Shown here in pieces: positions 5,816 to 62,167 of a stretch of DNA of 64,000 nt. The DNA is from Bacteriovoracia bacterium (lineage in GTDB: Bacteria > Bdellovibrionota > UBA1018 > CAIPTA01): positions 32,001 through 96,000 of the forward strand of contig JBFWVL010000002.1 of the NCBI GenBank assembly GCA_050246755.1, read 5' to 3'. Position numbers and translations under genes: made by a program. Numbering within the stretch: position 1 is the first letter of the stretch; each line of letters opens with the position of its first letter. Below the pieces are notes generated by a model. It was given only the letters and a program-made list of their open reading frames with translations, was not told where the DNA came from and ran no database searches.

Positions 5816-6220
5816 TTAGAAATCGAGTTCGCAGTTAACTTTTTTCCCGTTGGCCTCAAGGGAGGCGTGGAAGTAGGAGTCGTCCGCGGTCAGGGCGGTA
5901 AGCTTTCCTTGGCCGGGGATTTCGTACTCTCTCACGTAAGAGCCGTCGTCCTGATAAGACTGCGTAAGCACCACGGCACTGTCGTTGCGGACGTCGAGCC
6001 AAGTGAGGCCTTCCTCCGAGATCATGCCCAAACGAATGCCGCCGTCAAAACGCTGAATTTTTAAAGCGCACTCTTGGCCTTCGCCGATCATCAGGGAGAA
6101 GTTTCTCGCATCGGATTCGAGCTCATTCACCGAAGCCAGCTTTTGCGGCAATACCGCCAGCGCAGGTTGGGCGGCGAAGAGGGTGAGGGCTAGCAGGCTT
6201 AGGGGCAGTATATTTTTCAT
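5816..6220 (-). CDS. Secreted hypothetical protein
   Basis: GGAG RBS, signal peptide (ALA), two Cys. Confidence 0.7.
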   Translation of the reverse strand: MKNILPLSLLALTLFAAQPALAVLPQKLASVNELESDARNFSLMIGEGQECALKIQRFDGGIRLGMISEEGLTWLDVRNDSAVVLTQSYQDDGSYVREYEIPGQGKLTALTADDSYFHASLEANGKKVNCELDF

Positions 6221-6329
6221 AAATTCTCCGAACCAGTTTATGGGCAGAAGCTACTCCTCTCGTATTTATTATGCAAAATAATACGTTAAGGCATATTTGT
6301 ATTCTCTTTATGAATAATAAAAATGAGGC

Positions 6330-7247
6330 CTAAAGGATGGTTCCCTTGGAATTGCGCGTCGGCTCTTCGGGAAGAGGAATAAATTCACTTTCGTCGCCGG
6401 GAACTTTCGGAAAACGGCTGCCCGCTTCTCCAGGCCCTTTGCTCCATGCGGCTTTTGCCTCCGTGATATTTTTTTCCGAGCTCGAAACGAAATTCCAGTC
6501 GATAAAACGCCGCCCCAGCGGTTTGCCGCCAAAGAGCATTACCCGCGAAGGAGCCAGCGCTTCCATCGTAAGGTCGGTACCCACACGGCCGATTCCCATC
6601 GAAAATTCCTTCAATTCTTTTTCTTCCACTTTCAGGGAGCCGCTTACCACGTATAAGCCCGTCTCCTGATTCTCGGCGGGGAGAGTTAGCTTGGTGCCCT
6701 GAGGGAACACGGCATCAACGTAAAATAGTTCTGAGCCGGCCGCAGCGGCGCTGGTTTTTCCGAAGGCCGATCCAAGAAGGAGCTTTAATTTTACTCCGCC
6801 GAGTGTAAATTCCGGGAAGCTTTCCGCCGGGTGATGCACGAAACTGGGCGGTACGTCTTCGCTGCCTTCCGGCAGCGCCACCCAAAGCTGAATTCCGCTC
6901 AGGCGCCCGCCCGCCTTTCGCAAATCATCCGGCGTGCGTTCCGAGTGCACTATTCCGTGCCCCGCCGTCATCCAGTTGATGGCACCCGGCTCGATCAGCT
7001 GCTTGGATCCGAGGCTGTCGCGGTGAAGGATTTTCCCTTCGAAAAGGTAGGTTACGGTGGCGAGGTGAATATGGGGGTGAGGCCTTACGTCGAGGCCCTC
7101 ACCGGGCGCAAAGGCGGCAGGGCCCATATGGTCGAAAAAGATAAAAGGACCAACCATCCGATGCGAAGCGTAAGGGAGGAGTCGGCGCACCGAAAAACCG
7201 CCGAGGTCTTTTTCGCGCGAGGTGATAACGAGTGATAAATTTCCCAT
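6330..7247 (-). CDS. Pirin family protein
   Basis: GPFIFFDH, PHPHI, NWMTAGHGIVHSE, IQLWV. Confidence 0.95.
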   Translation of the reverse strand: MGNLSLVITSREKDLGGFSVRRLLPYASHRMVGPFIFFDHMGPAAFAPGEGLDVRPHPHIHLATVTYLFEGKILHRDSLGSKQLIEPGAINWMTAGHGIVHSERTPDDLRKAGGRLSGIQLWVALPEGSEDVPPSFVHHPAESFPEFTLGGVKLKLLLGSAFGKTSAAAAGSELFYVDAVFPQGTKLTLPAENQETGLYVVSGSLKVEEKELKEFSMGIGRVGTDLTMEALAPSRVMLFGGKPLGRRFIDWNFVSSSEKNITEAKAAWSKGPGEAGSRFPKVPGDESEFIPLPEEPTRNSKGTIL

Positions 7248-54698: not shown

Positions 54699-55634
54699 TT
54701 GAACAGAGCTCTTTGTCTCTTAGGTATCTCCATATTTGCTTTCGCCGGCTTCGGCTGCGCCGTTCCTGCGCGGCAAACCGAAGCTTTTCTATTAGCTCCG
54801 CGGGATATTCCCGAAGCTTATAAAATAGAAAATGTTTGGTTCATAAAACAGACCGAGAACTATTGCGGGCCTGCCACCCTGGCGATGGCCATGCGGTTCT
54901 GGGGAGAGCCTAGATCCGTGGAAGAATTGGCCTCGCAGGTATATACACCCGGAAAAAAGGGAACCTTGCAGCTCGATCTGATGAGCGCTAGCCGCCGTCA
55001 GGGAATGCTGGCGGTTCCGATTCAGGGCCTTTCGGCTTTGCTCCATGAAATCGCGGCGGGGCATCCTGTGATTGTGTTCGAGAATCTTGGCCTGAGCTGG
55101 TACCCAAGGTGGCATTACGCATTGGTTTATGGATACGACCTGCGTGAGCCGGAGATTATCCTTCATTCGGGGCCTGATAAAGAAAAGCACTGGAGCATGC
55201 GCAAATTCGAGCGGTCTTGGATGCTCGGCGACTATTGGGGGCTGGTGGTACTACCGCCGGATAAAATGTCGGCTTCCGGCGATGAGCTTGGGCACGCCGC
55301 CGCCGCGGCCGGCCTGGAGCAGGCGGGAAAAATTCCGGCAGCCGAGCTGGTGTATCAGAATATTCTGAAGCGCTGGCCCGGAAGCCTCGGCGCGCTGATT
55401 GGCATGGGAAATACTTCTTACGAAAAGAAAGAGTATCGGACGGCAGTTCGCTACCTCAAAGAGGCCACCGAGAAGCATCCGCTTTCGGCGGCGGCCTGGC
55501 ATAATCGCGCCACGGCCGAGGGGGCCGCGAAAATGGTTAAGGCCGCAAAAAAAAGTGCGGCCGAAGCTTTGCGTCTAGCTCCGGCCGAATCTATTTCCAC
55601 TTATCGCGAAAGCCTTAAGAATTGGCTGAACTAA
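54699..55634 (+). CDS. PA2778-family C39-like peptidase lipoprotein with TPR
   Basis: Lipobox FGC; Q..YCGPATL; WHYALVYGYD; TPR C-terminus. Confidence 0.88.
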   Translation: MNRALCLLGISIFAFAGFGCAVPARQTEAFLLAPRDIPEAYKIENVWFIKQTENYCGPATLAMAMRFWGEPRSVEELASQVYTPGKKGTLQLDLMSASRRQGMLAVPIQGLSALLHEIAAGHPVIVFENLGLSWYPRWHYALVYGYDLREPEIILHSGPDKEKHWSMRKFERSWMLGDYWGLVVLPPDKMSASGDELGHAAAAAGLEQAGKIPAAELVYQNILKRWPGSLGALIGMGNTSYEKKEYRTAVRYLKEATEKHPLSAAAWHNRATAEGAAKMVKAAKKSAAEALRLAPAESISTYRESLKNWLN

Positions 55635-57433
55635 CTTTCCGCGGATCCGTCTTTTACCCATTTCTTTAGGACGAATTTCTTCTTTTTGGGACGGGCATCG
55701 CCGCCGAGAGAAGGGGGCATATAATCTTTTTTTGCTTCCGAAGCGGCGGCCGTTTTGGGGGCCGACTGTTGCTGCGCCGAGAATGGCTTGAAGGAAGGCT
55801 TGGATCCGTAGCGGGCGCCAGGGGTCTTATCGGAAAAGGTAGGGCGGCTGCTATGGCCTTCGGCTTTGCGTTTCCAGGGCGGTAGGCGCGTGTCGGCACC
55901 GGCCGCGCGGGGCTGGTAGCTGCGCTTTTCCCCGTAGGCTGGATTTTCGGAAAATCTCGGTTTGTCCGAAAATTTAGGACGGTCGGAGAACTTGCGATCC
56001 GAAAATTTAGGCTTATCGAAACGAGGGCGTTCCGAATCCTCGCGGCTGCGGGGAGCTGGACGTCCGGCACGGGCACCGCGCTCGGAATCGCCTTTGGGAG
56101 CGGCGGGCCGGGAGTCGGCCATTTTTTCGGTTTTTTTATCCGAGAACATATCGGGCAGCATCAGCGCGAGGAAACGGCCGGCCACGTCTTCGGGGCTCAT
56201 TTCTTTCAGCGCGGTCTTCCACTCTTCGGGCAAGATCGCGGTGGCGCGCCCTTGCGGGCCGGCCGCGTCGAAAGCTTTTTGCACGTTCGTGATGCGCTTC
56301 ATGGCGATATCGCGGGCCGTAGGAATCACGCCTTCGTTGATCTTGCTCTTCGTCATGCGCTCGATGCGGCCGAGCAATTCACGGTGGGAGAAGGTAACGA
56401 GGCTGATGGCCACGCCTTTCTTGCCGGAGCGGCCGGTGCGGCCGATGCGGTGAACGTAGTTATCGAGCTCGCGGGGAATCGAGTAGTTCACCACGTGGGT
56501 GATATCTTTTACGTCGAGGCCGCGGCAGGCTACGTCGGTGGCGATGAGCACCGAGATCTTGCGGTCGCGGAAACCTTTCATCACGCGGTCGCGGGCAGTT
56601 TGGTCGAGATCGCCATGCAAGCAATCCACGCGATAGCCTTTGCCGGAAAGGAAAGAATTTACGTCGGCCACGAGGGCTTTGGTTTGGCAAAATACGATTC
56701 CGTAGAAATCATCGGCGGCGTCGATGATCTTGGTGAGCAGCTCGGGCTTATCATATTCGTGAGTTTTGTAGAAAATCTGCTCTACGGTATCGGGAACCAT
56801 CTCGGTGCGATTCACTTGCACCTTTTTAGGGTTTTTTAGGTAGGCATCGGCTACGCCGCGCACGTCGCCGCTCATGGTGGCGGAGAAGAGCCAGATATTA
56901 GACTGGCCTTTGGGCGCAGCCTGGAGAACTTTCTCGAGGTCTTCTTTAAAGCCCATCGAGATCATCTCGTCGGCTTCGTCGAGGATGAGGGTTTTGAGGT
57001 TATTTAATTTCAGGGTGCCTTTATCGATATGGTCCACCACGCGGCCGGGAGTTCCCACCACCACGGTGGCGCCGTATTTCAGGCCATCGATCTGTTCGCG
57101 GTAGCCGGTGCCGCCATAAACTGGCAGGGATTTAATGCCGAGGTGTTTTCCCAAAAGATCGATCTGGCCGGCCACCTGAATCGCGAGCTCGCGAGTGGGG
57201 CAGAGGATGAGTGCTTGCACGCCGGTCTTTTTCTTGTCGATACGCTCGAGCAGCGGGATTCCGAAGGCAGCCGTCTTGCCGGTTCCGGTGGCGGCGAGGC
57301 CAAGGAAATCAGTGTCTGCGCCGAGCAGGAGGGGAAGGGTTTCCGCCTGAATCGGAGTAGGGGTTTCGTACCCTAACTCTTGAATGGCTTTCATTACGGG
57401 GGCAGAGAGGCTTAATTCATTGAAATTTTGCAT
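55631..57433 (-). CDS. DEAD-box RNA helicase (DeaD/CshA-like)
   Basis: ATGTGKT, PTRELA, DEAD, SAT, HRIGRTGR; basic tail with (K/R)FSD repeats. Confidence 0.95.
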   Translation of the reverse strand: MQNFNELSLSAPVMKAIQELGYETPTPIQAETLPLLLGADTDFLGLAATGTGKTAAFGIPLLERIDKKKTGVQALILCPTRELAIQVAGQIDLLGKHLGIKSLPVYGGTGYREQIDGLKYGATVVVGTPGRVVDHIDKGTLKLNNLKTLILDEADEMISMGFKEDLEKVLQAAPKGQSNIWLFSATMSGDVRGVADAYLKNPKKVQVNRTEMVPDTVEQIFYKTHEYDKPELLTKIIDAADDFYGIVFCQTKALVADVNSFLSGKGYRVDCLHGDLDQTARDRVMKGFRDRKISVLIATDVACRGLDVKDITHVVNYSIPRELDNYVHRIGRTGRSGKKGVAISLVTFSHRELLGRIERMTKSKINEGVIPTARDIAMKRITNVQKAFDAAGPQGRATAILPEEWKTALKEMSPEDVAGRFLALMLPDMFSDKKTEKMADSRPAAPKGDSERGARAGRPAPRSREDSERPRFDKPKFSDRKFSDRPKFSDKPRFSENPAYGEKRSYQPRAAGADTRLPPWKRKAEGHSSRPTFSDKTPGARYGSKPSFKPFSAQQQSAPKTAAASEAKKDYMPPSLGGDARPKKKKFVLKKWVKDGSAES

Positions 57434-57551
57434 TGTGACAGCTTCATATCACGCATTGCGCAAATCTCTGACTGATTCTCGGCATGGTGCAAAAATAAAA
57501 AGTAACCATTGGTCATTTTTATAAAAAATTAATGATATCAGCAGGTTAATA

Positions 57552-57713
57552 TATGGTGAGCCGAGCGAGCCCCATGCTCAATCGGCTTGCCGTACCCCTC
57601 GCTCGACCCCTCATCCGCGCGCGCTGTGAGGGCTACAGCGAGATTTCTTTCTGCCAAGAAAGTGACCGAATTTCCGGCCTCGGAAATCGGCACGTTCATA
57701 AAAATATTGAACG
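57552..57713 (+). ncRNA. Candidate structured RNA or REP/MITE-like element
   Basis: Five consecutive hairpins; G-U pairs favour the + strand. Confidence 0.35.
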
Positions 57714-57825
57714 CGGTTTCCAAGATAAGTTTTATTTATTCCGTGAGCGCGTAGGCGCCCGGCCACGGAGGAGCAAAGGCGCTCAGAAAACAATTGGGGT
57801 TTTGCGCGAGATTACCACTCATCCC

Positions 57826-58218
57826 TTATTTCCCCTGTCGGCCCGCGAGCTCTTTGGCGAAATGCTGGTGAAGATCGTGAAACTCTTTTTGCAGCATTTC
57901 CAGTTCTTCGTCGCTAAGGCATTCCAAATCTACGAGCGCATTGCGGGCGCCCTTCGCTGCCTTAAGGAGCTCGTTGAGCTTAAGGTGAACGGCGCGGGAA
58001 TCACGGTTCTGAGAATTTTGGATCACGAAAACCATGAGGAATGTAATGATCGTGGTGCTGGTATTGATCACGAGCTGCCAGGTATCGGAATAGTGGAAGT
58101 AATGGCCGCAGGCGAGCCAGGCTCCCACCGAAAATAAGGCGATAATGAAGGCAAACGGAGATCCTGCGGCCTCGGCGGTAGCATGGGAAAATTTGCGAAA
58201 TTCATCTCGGAAGGTCAT
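57826..58218 (-). CDS. Low-affinity iron permease (Fet4-like) family protein
   Basis: SDTWQLVINTSTTIITFLMVFVIQNSQNRD..KLNEL. Confidence 0.92.
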   Translation of the reverse strand: MTFRDEFRKFSHATAEAAGSPFAFIIALFSVGAWLACGHYFHYSDTWQLVINTSTTIITFLMVFVIQNSQNRDSRAVHLKLNELLKAAKGARNALVDLECLSDEELEMLQKEFHDLHQHFAKELAGRQGK

Positions 58219-58301
58219 GAAGGCTCCTAGAATTACCGCGCCGAAGCTCTCACACTCCAATAATGGAGAGTTAGCGCGAACTTGCCGCACAGTTTACCCC
58301 T

Positions 58302-58739
58302 TTACGCTCGAAGGCGCTTACGGAATTTTTCCCAGTCCCATTTGGGCTGTTGGCATAGGGCGGTGAGCTCGAGGCAGATCTCGTCGGGCATGGAATCGTA
58401 AAGCGCCATATAGGTGGCGGGCGGATTCCTTATTTTTAGCGTAGCGATCGCCGCCTGATCGAGTGAGAAACCGAAAGCACGGCAAATGACCAGGAGAATT
58501 TCTTTAGGATCTGGAGAAACTTTCTCGGCGCAGTCTCGGAAGAGCTCCGATTCAGAAACCTTGAGGGTTTTGGCGAGAGTGGTGATGGTTTCCGGGCCTA
58601 CCCATTTTTTTCCCGCCTCAATATTCTGCAAGAAGCTCGTCGAGAGTTTCGCGCGTTTCGCGAATTCTCCCTGAGTGAGGTCGCGCTCTTGGCGTAAGCG
58701 TTTGATATTTTCTCCGAGGCATTCCGAAACTGTTTTCAT
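58302..58739 (-). CDS. XRE/Cro-CI-family HTH regulator
   Basis: NIKRLRQERDLTQ..LQNIEAGK; GAGGAGG RBS. Confidence 0.9.
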   Translation of the reverse strand: MKTVSECLGENIKRLRQERDLTQGEFAKRAKLSTSFLQNIEAGKKWVGPETITTLAKTLKVSESELFRDCAEKVSPDPKEILLVICRAFGFSLDQAAIATLKIRNPPATYMALYDSMPDEICLELTALCQQPKWDWEKFRKRLRA

Positions 58740-58802
58740 TTTTCCTCCTCTACACGCAAAGGTTTATCGTCGGGCAATTACAGCCTAACAGAGTGTTTTT
58801 GA

Positions 58803-58832
58803 TTGACAAAGAACATTCTATTGGAGTATATT
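58803..58832 (+). promoter_or_regulatory. sigma70 promoter
   Basis: TTGACA-N18-TATATT, with an imperfect inverted repeat (58790-58819) spanning the -35. Confidence 0.75.
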
Positions 58833-58848
58833 GAGCCTATCAGTAAGA

Positions 58849-58934
58849 CCGGGTTTTGGATCCCAAGGATTGGGGTAGTGGGCTGGCAGACCCAGACCGA
58901 GAGGCTTGCACGCTAGCCAAATTGCGGTACCCGG
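58849..58934 (+). ncRNA. Candidate structured 5' leader (multi-stem junction)
   Basis: CCGGGT/ACCCGG closing stem around three hairpins. Confidence 0.4.
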
Positions 58935-58957
58935 CCGCTTAGCACAAGGAAGTAAGT

Positions 58958-59683
58958 ATGAGTCGTACGTTTATCACTGAACAGGGCACGGAATTGCCGT
59001 TGCTCAATCTCAAAGGCAAAGACTATCTCGAGGTGAAATACCGCCTCGTGTGGTTCCGCGAAGAACACCCTCAATGGTCGATCGAGACGGAATTCCTATC
59101 GATGGACGATCGCTCCGCCTGCGCGCGGGCGGTGGTGCGGGATGAAACCGGCAGGATCATCGCCACTTCCCATAAGGCAGAAACGGCCGGAAATTTTCCG
59201 GACTTTATGGAAAAGGCGGAGACCGGTGCCATCGGCCGCGCGCTCGCGCTGATCGGATTCGGAACCCAGTTCTGCGCCGATGAGCTCGACGAGGGAGATC
59301 GCATCGTGGATGCCCCCGTGGCCAAAAAATCGGACTACCAAATTCCTCCCAGCGTGGGTTTGGCGCGAATGGCCTCGGACAGGGAATTCAGCCTCGGGGA
59401 TTTCGAAGTGAAGTTCGGGAAAAAATATTTCGGCAAACGCCTGAAAGACATTCCCCGCGCGGAAATCGAATCCTATGTGGATTGGCTCGAAACCAATGCC
59501 AAACAAAAAATGACGGGCCCAAGCTACGAGCTTACTTTGCTGAAAGAAGCCGTGGACCGCTTCCACCATCCGGAGAAATACAAAGCTCCGGTGAAGGAAG
59601 AAAAAGTGGCGAAGAAAGAGGAGAAGCCCGCTAAGAAAGAAGAAAAGGCAGTGGTGGCCAAGGAAACGAACGCCGTGGTTTAG
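58958..59683 (+). CDS. Rad52/Sak-like single-strand annealing protein with C-terminal FGK-motif domain
   Basis: KGKDYLEVKYRLVWFR..AETGAIGRALALIGFG; FGKKYFGKRLKDIP..YVDWL; Lys/Glu tail. Confidence 0.65.
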   Translation: MSRTFITEQGTELPLLNLKGKDYLEVKYRLVWFREEHPQWSIETEFLSMDDRSACARAVVRDETGRIIATSHKAETAGNFPDFMEKAETGAIGRALALIGFGTQFCADELDEGDRIVDAPVAKKSDYQIPPSVGLARMASDREFSLGDFEVKFGKKYFGKRLKDIPRAEIESYVDWLETNAKQKMTGPSYELTLLKEAVDRFHHPEKYKAPVKEEKVAKKEEKPAKKEEKAVVAKETNAVV

Positions 59684-59699
59684 TTCTTAAAGACCAAGA

Positions 59700-59738
59700 G
59701 AAAAAGAGGCCGGTGTTTCCACCGGCCTCTTTTTCTTT
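59700..59738. terminator. Strong bidirectional intrinsic terminator
   Basis: GAAAAAGAGGCCGGTG-loop-CACCGGCCTCTTTTTC. Confidence 0.9.
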
Positions 59739-59749
59739 CGGGGGCTCAA

Positions 59750-60160
59750 CTAATAAACATCATTCCGTTCATTCCAGGATTTACGGGCCTCTTCCGAAGG
59801 ATGCTTCGCGAAGATCGCTTCGAGCTCTCTTTTTTGTTTCAGGGAAGCCCGCTTGCCGTTGAATAAATCCGCTATCGTGGCGGCGTAATCCGGCGACGTA
59901 TCGGTCTTGAGGCGCTCAATCAAGGCGCGGGCAATGGGTTCGGGAGAGGGAGTTGGCCCTTGCCTGTTAGCGGCGGCGTAAGTAAGTAAGTAAGTTTACG
60001 TTGTCGGGGCTAGCGGTGGCTGCAATTTTGGGGGCGTAGCGAATGAGTTCCTTATCGTCGGGCATGTGATAGGCTAGGTGCCCAATCAGCCTAAGTTGAT
60101 CTACCTCGGGATCTTCTTTCAAGTTGAGGACGGGTGTCGAAGGATCAGGCAGCTTGAAGC
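59750..60160 (-). pseudogene. Frameshifted, apparently 5'-truncated gene remnant
   Basis: Two open frames are joined in frame if one unit of (GTAA)4 at 59978-59993 is removed. Confidence 0.55.
59978..59995. repeat. (GTAA)4GT tetranucleotide repeat
   Basis: Read directly from the sequence. Confidence 0.95.
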
Positions 60161-60216
60161 AAGGATCGACTAAGCTAATGCCTAGTCGATTATTGTTTAT
60201 AGTGAGTTGGTGCTGA

Positions 60217-60660
60217 TTATCCGGCGCGGTCGAGGCGAACTTTATTACCGCGGATCTTCAGCTTGCCGGCGCTATTTTTCGTGGCCGTGAAGGTGAAGAT
60301 CAACGAGCTCTCGAGTTCAGGGCCTTGGTAGCCCGTTTCGGTGGCGGTATAGTCGCCATTATTGATCTGCAGGCGGCATTCGAGGAGCGCGCCGCGGGTG
60401 GCTTCGCAGTGGCCCGAAACGCTATTGATCACGATTTCTTGGCCAACCTTCTCGATGCGGGTATCGAGCGCAAGGGCTTGGCCCAAAAGCTCGGGCAGGC
60501 TCTGCTCGGCTTTTTGGCCATCCTGGTATTCGAGCTGAAGGCCGGCGGAATTTGCGATAAGGGCGGTGAGGATGTCCTGGGCTTTCACTTCCTCCTGGGC
60601 GTAGGCGCTGAGGCCGGTGAGCAAGGCGGAAGCGAGGGCGAGGGCGAAAAACTTTTTCAT
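60217..60660 (-). CDS. Secreted hypothetical protein
   Basis: AGGAG RBS, signal peptide (AYA), Cys pair. Confidence 0.75.
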   Translation of the reverse strand: MKKFFALALASALLTGLSAYAQEEVKAQDILTALIANSAGLQLEYQDGQKAEQSLPELLGQALALDTRIEKVGQEIVINSVSGHCEATRGALLECRLQINNGDYTATETGYQGPELESSLIFTFTATKNSAGKLKIRGNKVRLDRAG

Positions 60661-60775
60661 AAAATCTCCTGGGAAATGGTGGCACCGTTTTGGTGTGCTC
60701 CTCTTATAGGAAAGAAATTAACATCTAAAAAGTAGATAAATTGCATAGAAACCATTCTTTTTTTGAATGGATGGG

Positions 60776-62167
60776 TTATCGAAGCAAATCCACGCGGAAC
60801 TTCCGCCCTTTGATTTTTCCGTCTTGCAGGCATTTCAGCGCTGCCGTAGCAATGGAGCGCGAAACGGCCACGTAAGAAAATCGATCATGGATTTCGATCT
60901 TGCCTACGTCGGCGCCGTTGAATCCGCCGGCATCGCCGGTGAGGGCGCCGAGGATATCGCCGGGACGTACTTTGTCTTTTCGTCCGCCGCTTATATAGAA
61001 CGTGACCATTTTCGGCGGCGCTAATTTCTCGCCGGTGGATTCCATGTCGGTACGGCCCGGAAGCTCACCCACGGTGAGCGGATTCTCTTTTTCCAAAAGC
61101 GACGCGCGGTGGCGCTCTTTGGGGGAAACAAAAGTAATGGCCACGCCGCTCTTTCCCGCCCGGCCCGTGCGGCCCACGCGATGGGTATAGATATCCGGCT
61201 GGGGCACGTCGAAATTGATCACGAGCTCAAGATCGGCCACGTCGATCCCGCGCGCGGCCACGTCGGTGGCCACGAGGATGCGGGTGCTGTGGTTGCGGAA
61301 TTTCGCCATCACCTTATCGCGGTCCTGCTGCTCGAGGTCCCCTTGCAGCCCCTCGGCCTGGAAGCCACTCTGGTTCAGGATTTTCGTGAGCTCCACCACC
61401 GTAACTTTCAGGTTACAAAAAATGATCGCCTGCTCGGGTTTACGCTCCCGTAAGCAGTGGAGGAGGGAGGGCAGTTTATTTTGCTCCTCCACTTCGTATA
61501 AAATCTGTTCGATCGAGCTGGCGGCCCCGGAAGCTTCGTCTTGGATTATTATGCGGGCCGGTGATTTTTGGTAGCGCTCGCTCATGGCCTCGATGGAATC
61601 GGGAAAAGTGGCGGAAAAGAAAATCGTCTGGCGCTCTTCGGGAAGTGCGGCCAGGATTTCTTCCATCTCTTCCTGAAAACCCATATCGAGCATGCGGTCG
61701 GCTTCGTCCAATGCGATTTGCGTGCAGCGGCTTAAATCCACGGTTCCCCGGCGCAAGTGATCGAGCACGCGGCCAGGGGTACCCACCGCGATATGGGCCC
61801 CCATGCGGAGGGCTCCAAGCTGGGACTGAATGGGCTGACCACCCACCAGGGAGGCCACGTTGAGGCCCTGGAAGCGGCGGCCGAGGCGGCGGATCTCGCG
61901 GGTCACTTGGGTGCAGAGCTCCCGGGTAGGGCAAAGCACGAGGGCCTGGAGCTCGCCCTCGGAATCGGGAAGGCGGGCCAGGATGGGGAGGGCGAAGGCG
62001 AAAGTTTTGCCAGATCCCGTTTTGGATTGGCCAATGAGATCCTTCCCTTCAAGGAGGAGGGGGATGCTTTCGGCCTGAATGGGCGTGAGTTCCGTAAAAC
62101 CCAGTTCCTGGATTACGGTGAGCACCTCTTCAGGGAGGGGGAGAGAATCAAAACGGACTTTACCCAT
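60776..62167 (-). CDS. dbpA: DEAD-box helicase DbpA
   Basis: DEAD motifs plus the DbpA RNA-binding domain GGRKDKVRPGDILGALT. Confidence 0.93.
   Translation of the reverse strand: MGKVRFDSLPLPEEVLTVIQELGFTELTPIQAESIPLLLEGKDLIGQSKTGSGKTFAFALPILARLPDSEGELQALVLCPTRELCTQVTREIRRLGRRFQGLNVASLVGGQPIQSQLGALRMGAHIAVGTPGRVLDHLRRGTVDLSRCTQIALDEADRMLDMGFQEEMEEILAALPEERQTIFFSATFPDSIEAMSERYQKSPARIIIQDEASGAASSIEQILYEVEEQNKLPSLLHCLRERKPEQAIIFCNLKVTVVELTKILNQSGFQAEGLQGDLEQQDRDKVMAKFRNHSTRILVATDVAARGIDVADLELVINFDVPQPDIYTHRVGRTGRAGKSGVAITFVSPKERHRASLLEKENPLTVGELPGRTDMESTGEKLAPPKMVTFYISGGRKDKVRPGDILGALTGDAGGFNGADVGKIEIHDRFSYVAVSRSIATAALKCLQDGKIKGRKFRVDLLR

Follow-up and report, generated by a model that had tools for sequence, protein, structure and literature searches.

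A divergent XRE regulator and a Rad52-fold annealing protein candidate in a Bacteriovoracia chromosome: a probable remnant of a phage immunity and early region

Introduction

Do a repressor-type gene and a divergent annealase-like gene that stand by themselves in a bacterial chromosome form a repair system of the host, or are they a piece of a phage that was left behind? This question is raised by two genes of a Bacteriovoracia bacterium of the phylum Bdellovibrionota (assembly GCA_050246755.1, contig JBFWVL010000002.1). The window analyzed here is a 64,000-nt stretch of this contig (positions 32,001 to 96,000 of the forward strand). All coordinates below are window positions unless another locus is named, and the unit under study occupies 58302..59738. 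A first-pass annotation, made from the sequence alone, had proposed a self-contained, domesticated and inducible module for RecA-independent annealing or repair. On the basis of the current analysis, we consider, with a probability of about 0.55, that the pair is a stranded immunity/early-region cassette of a temperate phage, now alone in the chromosome and without the exonuclease that it once had. The basis of this reading is the anatomy of the genes, the fold, family and predicted self-association of the single-strand annealing protein (SSAP) candidate, the recurrence of the pair in other genomes, the phage-type layout of its relatives and the lack of a prophage around it.

Gene pair and control region

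According to the list of open reading frames (ORFs), a minus-strand gene at 58302..58739 encodes a 145-aa regulator of the XRE/Cro-CI helix-turn-helix (HTH) type and a plus-strand gene at 58958..59683 encodes the 241-aa SSAP candidate, so that the divergent arrangement of an XRE gene and an annealase-like gene was found as annotated. Both ORFs are full length and have good ribosome-binding sites, that of the SSAP gene being AAGGAAG before its ATG. The XRE protein matched Pfam HTH_3 with an E-value of 3.8e-13 (49.7 bits against a cut-off of 23), which agrees with its earlier description as an XRE repressor-type protein; HTH_31 and HTH_19 were also matched. Its HTH domain covers residues 8-68, and the C-terminal part of ∼75 aa belongs to no known family in Pfam or NCBIfam. 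In addition, it matched PHROG families of the 'transcriptional regulator/repressor' kind, and its matches in PADLOC were generic HTH matches only. No Peptidase_S24 match was found at E⩽1, unlike in LexA/CI-type self-cleaving repressors. The XRE protein is likely the repressor of the divergent promoter.

The two genes are separated by a control region of 218 nt (58740..58957). A promoter scan of this region located the plus-strand promoter TTGACA-N18-TATATT of the first-pass annotation at 58803-58832, with 11 of the 12 positions agreeing with the consensus, and a weaker minus-strand site, CTGATA-17-TAGAAT (58843->58815; 9/12), which overlaps it. It should be noted that the number of promoter-like sites in the region (two, against 1.0±1.0 in shuffled sequences) is not above chance, and the notable feature is the quality of the one TTGACA-N18-TATATT site only. 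From the end of the -10 element (58832) and the ATG (58958), the SSAP leader was calculated to be ∼118 nt, close to the previous estimate of about 120 nt. The leader had no Rfam match and its folding z-score was 0.19, indicating no structured RNA. The SSAP unit is ended by a hairpin terminator detected in the repeat and hairpin scans (59694..59741), which had been annotated as a 16-bp terminator and can be drawn with 22-nt arms (91% complementary) and a 4-nt loop or, alternatively, as a stem of 17 pairs, nine of them G-C. Because it is flanked by an A-run and a T-run, this terminator looks bidirectional.

Fold, family and self-association of the SSAP candidate

The 241-aa protein had no match in the Pfam (E⩽1) and NCBIfam libraries scanned and none in PADLOC, whereas it matched PHROG families of unknown function (phrog_27776, 7e-20). 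A precomputed Pfam label, PF27148.1, was present on the window protein and on all 120 listed homologues; the corresponding name in the Atlas is Slr1353_N. The family is large (4129 proteins at E⩽0.001; 5626 cluster representatives) and, though named in Pfam, uncharacterised in the literature searched: no functional study of it was found there, and in the accessible text of these sources slr1353 appeared in expression tables only. A sequence search of the PDB with either the protein or the profile gave nothing at E⩽10.

The structure was modeled with AlphaFold2 (AF2) from a 56-row alignment (mean predicted local distance difference test (pLDDT) score 84); a single-sequence model had been dropped (pLDDT 47). 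The model divides the protein into an N-domain (residues 1-111; DNA 58958-59290), a disordered linker (residues 112-144), a helical domain that carries an FGK motif (residues 145-208; DNA 59390-59581) and a Lys/Glu tail that is evident in the sequence and modeled with low confidence (residues 209-241). The N-domain is predicted with a pLDDT of 92-98 over residues 1-100, with strands at 41-49, 53-61 and 67-76 and a helix at 83-101. Its core would thus consist of a beta-hairpin, a three-stranded sheet and a long helix, the arrangement by which the Rad52 SSAP fold is recognized. A Foldseek search with the N-domain listed human RAD52 first (E 4.3e-4, probability 1.00), and Mgm101, Sak of phage 80alpha and Red-beta were also listed. 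In an independent search with VIA, RAD52 ranked first among 48,161 chains (Z 8.1, root-mean-square deviation 3.6, 98 residues aligned), Mgm101 and Sak scored Z 6.8, and the Rad52-type matches spanned 96-99 residues. The Rad52/Sak-type character that had been suspected from motifs is, at the level of the fold, borne out by both searches. Among viral models in BFVD, 74 were matched at E⩽0.001, some of them named Rad52/59/22, Erf or SAK3. The best match, A0A6J5S1P5, is a 405-aa fusion of a PDDEXK-like exonuclease and an annealase domain (46% identity over 149 columns). On the evidence of the model, the 241-aa protein is a Rad52-fold SSAP candidate that lies outside the Sak and Rad52 sequence families. 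One Atlas cluster mixes PF06378 (64%) and PF27148 (30%), which hints that these are neighbouring families.

Self-association was predicted for four copies of residues 1-112, with an ipSAE of 0.73 (0.79, 0.73 and 0.73 in separate runs) and a best control of 0.00; the mark used for this score was reached by 20 of 30 solved homo-pairs and by 1 of 23 single chains. The predicted contact is edge to edge, strands 41-46 of one copy pairing with 68-74 of the next.

The extra FGK-motif domain and the Lys/Glu tail of the first-pass annotation are both present in the sequence. The motif lies at residues ∼149-158 and its columns align across the family, and the tail is confined to close kin of the window protein. 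ExoX-like_C (PF20600) was matched by this domain in 11 of 56 aligned relatives (best 3.4e-6) and QSregVF_b (PF12843) in 8 of 56, whereas the domain of the window protein itself matched neither at E⩽10. When the C-domain alone was searched against the Atlas, no score exceeded 0.75, which is too low for use, and the available part of the ExoX structure paper contains nothing on a C-terminal domain. As a side observation, 21 of 150 cluster representatives (for example, P0131, P0135, P0142 and P0145) end in ...PF, with an acidic residue before it in 18. This end resembles the tip of the bacterial single-stranded DNA-binding protein (SSB) and may serve as a docking tip for SSB-binding enzymes; it was found in none of the 120 closest homologues. 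At the DNA level, the N-domain (58985-59323) is 66-77% identical across viral contigs and loci titled Bdellovibrionota, candidate division WWE3 and Deltaproteobacteria (L008). On these alignments, such conservation appears unusually strong for a mobile gene, the rest of the unit not aligning.

Relatives of the pair and their phage-type layout

When the window XRE protein was used as a tblastn query, homologues divergent from an SSAP gene were found in two related loci (L020, 43% identity; L006, 36% over 140 residues). Three of 400 other genomes of the phylum contained XRE homologues at E⩽1e-8, two of which (G388 and G292) have them within ∼1 kb of the SSAP gene and divergent from it. Thus, the synteny check recommended for the pair was positive, with the divergent XRE-SSAP arrangement recurring in L006, L020, G292 and G388.

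Viral contigs show what such a pair looks like in a phage. In a 40-kb viral contig (L111), a minus-strand HTH_3 gene is followed on the plus strand by an 81-aa ORF, a DUF3799 PD-(D/E)XK nuclease, the SSAP and a 77-aa ORF, with an integrase 0.75 kb further on. In a 38-kb viral contig (L113), a homologue of the window XRE protein occupies the repressor position (34% identity, E 4.6e-9), divergent from an operon that contains Bro-N and the SSAP. In L112, an integrase gene lies 1.4 kb downstream of the SSAP. Judged from gene order, the layout of L111 and L113 is the repressor/early-operon junction of temperate phages. Because its relatives have this layout, the module appears to be phage-derived and not an invention of the host. 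The notion of a self-contained module therefore stands in that there is no prophage around the pair, but not in its origin, since the layout is that of a phage and lacks the exonuclease of the closest relatives.

A FastTree phylogeny of 171 N-domains (128 columns, many weak forks) placed the window protein with L111 and the metagenome locus L085 (SH-like support 88), beside nuclease-linked copies from Bacteriovoracaceae. The distribution of viral and genomic labels on this tree needs at least 20 changes, at least five of which are forced by well-supported branches. Exonucleases adjoin the SSAP gene in the relatives L010, L020, L083, L084 and L111, a SynExo-type pairing; in L020, L083 and L084 a PD-(D/E)XK nuclease lies directly upstream.

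The SSAP gene was present in 14 of 401 genomes sampled from the phylum, the window's own included; it was full length in 10, cut by a contig end in one and represented by a C-domain match only in three. Matches were also found in 24 of 50,697 phage records, in 282 IMG/VR stretches and in 262 stretches of bacterial genomes. A phage homologue adjoins an exonuclease and SSB, and in Thermus phages the homologue adjoins a helicase, a Holliday-junction resolvase and a primase. We scanned the neighbours of SSAP genes in two batches, the first comprising 130 ORFs of 19 loci (17 from Bdellovibrionota, one from candidate division WWE3 and one from Deltaproteobacteria) and the second the 125 nearest-neighbour ORFs of the remaining loci. 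Phage-type neighbours in the second batch were Sipho_Gp157 (four loci), Mu Gam-like, SSB and Endo VII (one each). According to the available part of a previous study, Sipho_Gp157 and Gam are the usual upstream neighbours of erf-ssb modules (PMC8093625), and because of these shared neighbours the Slr1353_N family appears to occupy the SSAP slot.

Two groups of relatives have a cellular setting. In 10 of the 19 loci of the first batch (L004, L006, L007, L011, L012, L014, L016, L017, L018 and L019; SSAP match mostly at ∼6001-6700 of these loci), a RecD2-type helicase immediately follows the SSAP gene on the same strand. It is of the RecD2/YrrC type (∼720-775 aa), occurs in Pseudobdellovibrionaceae-type genomes and has ordinary cellular genes on both sides, and from this gene order it looks like a chromosomal SSAP-RecD2 operon; the RecD2-linked copies also formed a tight subclade in the tree. 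L010 contains a RecD2 fragment downstream of the SSAP and a DUF3799 nuclease upstream. In the second batch, four loci from Armatimonadota (L056, L068, L070 and L071) have recA directly upstream of the SSAP gene and on its strand. In addition, an S1/P1-type nuclease gene was observed one or two genes from the SSAP in L012, L013 and L021 (Bdellovibrionota), and a RluD-type pseudouridine synthase lies downstream of it in six other loci, five of which are titled Fimbriimonadales or Armatimonadota.

Genomic surroundings

The first-pass annotation had reported no integrase, exonuclease, SSB or structural genes nearby, and this was confirmed over a wider region. Pfam searches covered 45 ORFs between -22 kb and +18 kb, namely 25 from 35.8-64 kb of the window, 14 from the adjoining 14 kb of the contig and the six of the unit. 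They returned cellular families only, among them two-component systems, CheR/CheB, DEAD-box helicases, PPK2, a molybdopterin enzyme and an ABC-F protein, and no integrase, exonuclease, SSB, packaging, capsid, tail or lysis gene; several ORFs matched no family and could include small phage genes. Searching the window by tblastn with two integrases, four PD-(D/E)XK nucleases and RecD2 from related loci revealed no debris (best E 0.056, 57 kb away). There is neither a tRNA gene nor a compositional step in the window, and in a 3.6-kb stretch around the pair no flanking repeats like phage attachment (att) sites were found, the only repeats being direct pairs of 12-15 nt and one 27-nt pair of 70% identity. 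RecD2 was not found in the window's genome by two queries (genome completeness 95.7%).

The pair lies in a variable stretch of 3.3 kb (57434..60775) between two minus-strand DEAD-box helicase genes, one at 55631-57433 and the other, with a DbpA RNA-binding domain, at 60776-62167. Besides the pair, the stretch contains an iron-permease gene (57826-58290, minus strand), a lipoprotein-like ORF (60217-60660, minus strand) and small ORFs. In a genome of the same genus (G002), ∼830 nt separate the two helicase genes, and this interval holds a response-regulator gene. The two helicase genes are neighbours in both G002 and G004 of this genus, in differing order.

Sequence retention

Between 57747 and 59949, the window is matched colinearly by a 39-kb contig from another study (run X3), with ∼92% identity, 171 differences and 14 gap letters. 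Indels listed for this stretch are at 57805, 57833, 58290, 58301, 58893, 58896, 58940 and 58956; four further indels occur in the 6.8 kb aligned. None of those listed falls inside the XRE or SSAP ORF, although the two ORFs make up 53% of the colinear stretch, and those within the control region (58893, 58896, 58940 and 58956) are all in the leader. Ratios of nonsynonymous to synonymous substitution rates (dN/dS) were 0.14 against L020 and 0.17 against L084, with saturated dS in the other four of six comparisons. Because both ORFs are intact and carry no listed indels in the ∼92% lineage, selection probably still acts on them. The sequences favour retention over decay and do not imply a host function. 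Thus, the idea of domestication is plausible in view of the indel-free ORFs and the low dN/dS, but these data do not amount to proof of it.

Proposed mechanism

For the phage-derived cassette, we infer repression by the XRE protein, annealing by the SSAP and retention under selection. The CI-type XRE gene would face an early promoter that now drives a single gene, that of the Slr1353_N Rad52-fold SSAP. A dimer of the XRE protein may bind in the 218-nt spacer and keep the near-consensus promoter shut. Once repression is lifted, the SSAP would be made and its N-domains would assemble side by side into rings or filaments, which could bind single-stranded DNA (ssDNA) exposed by host nucleases and anneal it to the complementary strand. 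A part that docks partners might be formed by the helical ExoX-like C-domain together with the charged tail. Since the exonuclease that accompanies this SSAP elsewhere is missing here, as is the RecD2 helicase of other lineages, the SSAP would have to rely on enzymes of the host or act only on ssDNA from other sources.

Evidence against the phage-remnant reading

Several results weigh against this explanation or loosen its parts. First, kinship with known SSAPs, for which a profile comparison had been suggested, could not be demonstrated at the sequence level: none of 56 family members matched Pfam Rad52_Rad22 (PF04098) or SSAP_Sak (PF06378) at E⩽10, and hhalign with the family alignment gave a probability of 0.8% against 80alpha Sak and 1.15% against a 16-row Sak alignment. 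In the latter comparison, only the signature helix EKAETGAIGRALALIGFG aligned, which includes G93, R94, L96, G100 and G102, five of the 13 residues that are invariant in the 56-row family alignment. Second, folds like the double-stranded RNA-binding domain followed closely in VIA (Z 6-7), with fewer residues (55-79), and the self-association prediction may have passed from likeness to solved Rad52 rings. Third, the window contains no exonuclease partner of the SSAP. Fourth, the SSAP gene was found in none of the 40 relatives searched, including five of the genus and three more of the family, as would be expected for a recent, possibly transient acquisition. Fifth, the low dN/dS mostly reflects constraint on the whole family, including phage lineages, and not necessarily constraint since the stranding.

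Finally, the operator is uncertain. The imperfect dyad that had been noticed over the -35 element does exist (AGAGTGTT-N14-AACATTCT at 58790-58819, one mismatch, with the -35 at its centre), but an equally good one occurred in 194 of 300 shuffles of the spacer and it is therefore at chance level. Similarly, a 10-nt direct repeat on either side of the promoter (58782/58834) was matched in 86 of 300 shuffles. On these counts, the operator is a guess. When the spacer was compared with related loci by blastn, similarity was confined to the SSAP coding part, and inspection of the L006 spacer by eye revealed no obvious operator in common with that of the window.

Alternative explanations

The most novel of the other explanations, which we regard as considerably less likely than the phage-remnant reading, is that Slr1353_N includes true cellular Rad52-type annealases coupled to host motors, namely the RecD2-coupled Pseudobdellovibrionaceae and recA-coupled Armatimonadota forms, and that the window pair is a third, regulator-coupled form and not a phage leftover.

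It is rather unlikely that the pair is a host-domesticated, damage-inducible pathway for RecA-independent annealing or repair, as originally proposed. The intact ORFs, the strong promoter and the clean terminator speak for such a pathway, as do the conservation of the pair in the ∼92% lineage from another study and the cellular lineages of the family with RecD2 (10/19 loci) or behind recA (the four Armatimonadota loci). Moreover, a precedent exists in the damage-induced chromosomal Rad52 homologue DdrA of Deinococcus, as described in the available part of the source (PMC515370). However, nothing links the XRE protein to damage sensing, given that it has no S24 domain, no adjacent protease and only generic HTH matches in PADLOC. 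The absence of RecD2 in both genome queries and of the SSAP gene in all 40 relatives also argues against a host pathway, and the nearest kin of the SSAP in the tree are viral or exonuclease-linked copies.

An equally low probability is given to the idea that the pair is an inert, functionless leftover of a decayed prophage that has merely escaped degradation so far. It would account for the phage-type layout with its missing exonuclease, for the location in a variable stretch of 3.3 kb without a counterpart in same-genus genomes and for the patchy distribution (14/401 genomes of the phylum). On the other hand, no integrase, exonuclease or other phage-gene debris was detected by tblastn, both ORFs have kept their full length and good ribosome-binding sites, the listed indels of the ∼92% lineage avoid the ORFs (53% of the stretch), and the XRE-SSAP pairing has been maintained in three separate families of the phylum.

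We are more doubtful still that the 241-aa protein is an ssDNA-coating or end-capping protein (DdrA-like or a phage substitute for SSB) and not an annealase. In one set of Thermus phage records the homologue bears the name 'ssDNA binding protein', the SSB-like ...PF tip occurs in 21 of 150 cluster representatives (18 with the acidic residue), and DdrA, as far as the accessible part of its description goes, binds and protects 3' ends (PMC515370). However, a separate SSB gene adjoins the homologue in several phage loci, for which reason substitution for SSB is disfavoured, and its place in phage operons relative to exonuclease, Gam and Gp157 is the same as that of Erf/Sak in the available portion of the cited survey (PMC8093625).

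The least probable proposal places selection on the repressor: a phage would have left behind a CI-type repressor that gives immunity to related phages, and the SSAP would be a passenger. An XRE homologue does occupy the repressor position of the 38-kb viral contig, and the window XRE protein matches PHROG repressor families. Against the proposal, listed indels of the ∼92% lineage are absent from the SSAP ORF just as they are from the XRE ORF.

Comparison with known systems

With the phage Sak/Rad52-type SSAPs (80alpha Sak, PDB 8qe9/8pq8; human RAD52; yeast Mgm101), the window protein has in common the core fold, including the helix with a conserved basic residue, and, by prediction, the side-by-side self-association, and its family shares with them the place in phage recombination modules. 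The window protein differs from Sak and RAD52 in carrying the label of a separate Pfam family (PF27148) with no significant sequence or profile match to them, and in having the helical FGK-motif domain and the Lys/Glu tail instead of their C-terminal parts.

Lambda-type immunity regions contain a CI repressor gene divergent from an early operon that includes exo and bet. This layout, an HTH repressor divergent from an operon of exonuclease and annealase, is seen in the viral contigs L111 and L113. In contrast with a lambda-type region, the operon in the window consists of the annealase alone, without a Cro-like or exonuclease gene, and its operator is at chance level. With the recET genes of the Escherichia coli Rac prophage, too, a chromosome has retained an annealase of phage origin, which normally stays silent under control of the prophage type. 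Rac is a recognisable 23-kb defective prophage that retains the exonuclease RecE, and RecT belongs to another SSAP family. The window annealase would likewise be of phage descent, but the window keeps the repressor and annealase only, with no phage genes from -22 to +18 kb. The locus is therefore best read as known in kind, a kept piece of a phage early region and not a new repair system.

DdrA of Deinococcus radiodurans, according to the part of the report that is available, is a damage-induced host Rad52 homologue that binds ssDNA and protects 3' ends (PMC515370). As far as this source goes, both DdrA and the window protein are chromosomal bacterial Rad52-type proteins outside a prophage, whereas the window protein is a candidate from another sequence family.

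At the locus itself, the result is mostly a clarification: what looked like a self-contained repair module can be read as a minimal leftover of a phage immunity/early region. Being a compact annealase candidate with a Rad52 fold, from Bdellovibrionota and with many relatives in phages and cells, the protein is a candidate recombineering tool in that group. The RecD2- and RecA-linked cellular lineages are the more interesting lead and would make a bacterial Rad52-like pathway directly testable.

Other features

Two small minus-strand ORFs beyond the terminator matched no family in Pfam or PHROG. The 57-aa ORF just behind it (59750-59923) lies inside the part that aligns with the X3 relative (to 59949), whereas the 51-aa ORF (59967-60122) is probably not a gene because nearly all of it falls outside the aligned part. 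Spikes in alignment depth at 56408-56634, 61175-61401 and 61629-61855, with the joints between them, were rejected as features, as they represent conserved DEAD-box motifs that draw in contigs of other organisms. The X3 contig contains extra DNA on both sides of the pair, ∼3.3 kb between 59949 and 60128 and ∼1.1 kb between 57501 and 57747.

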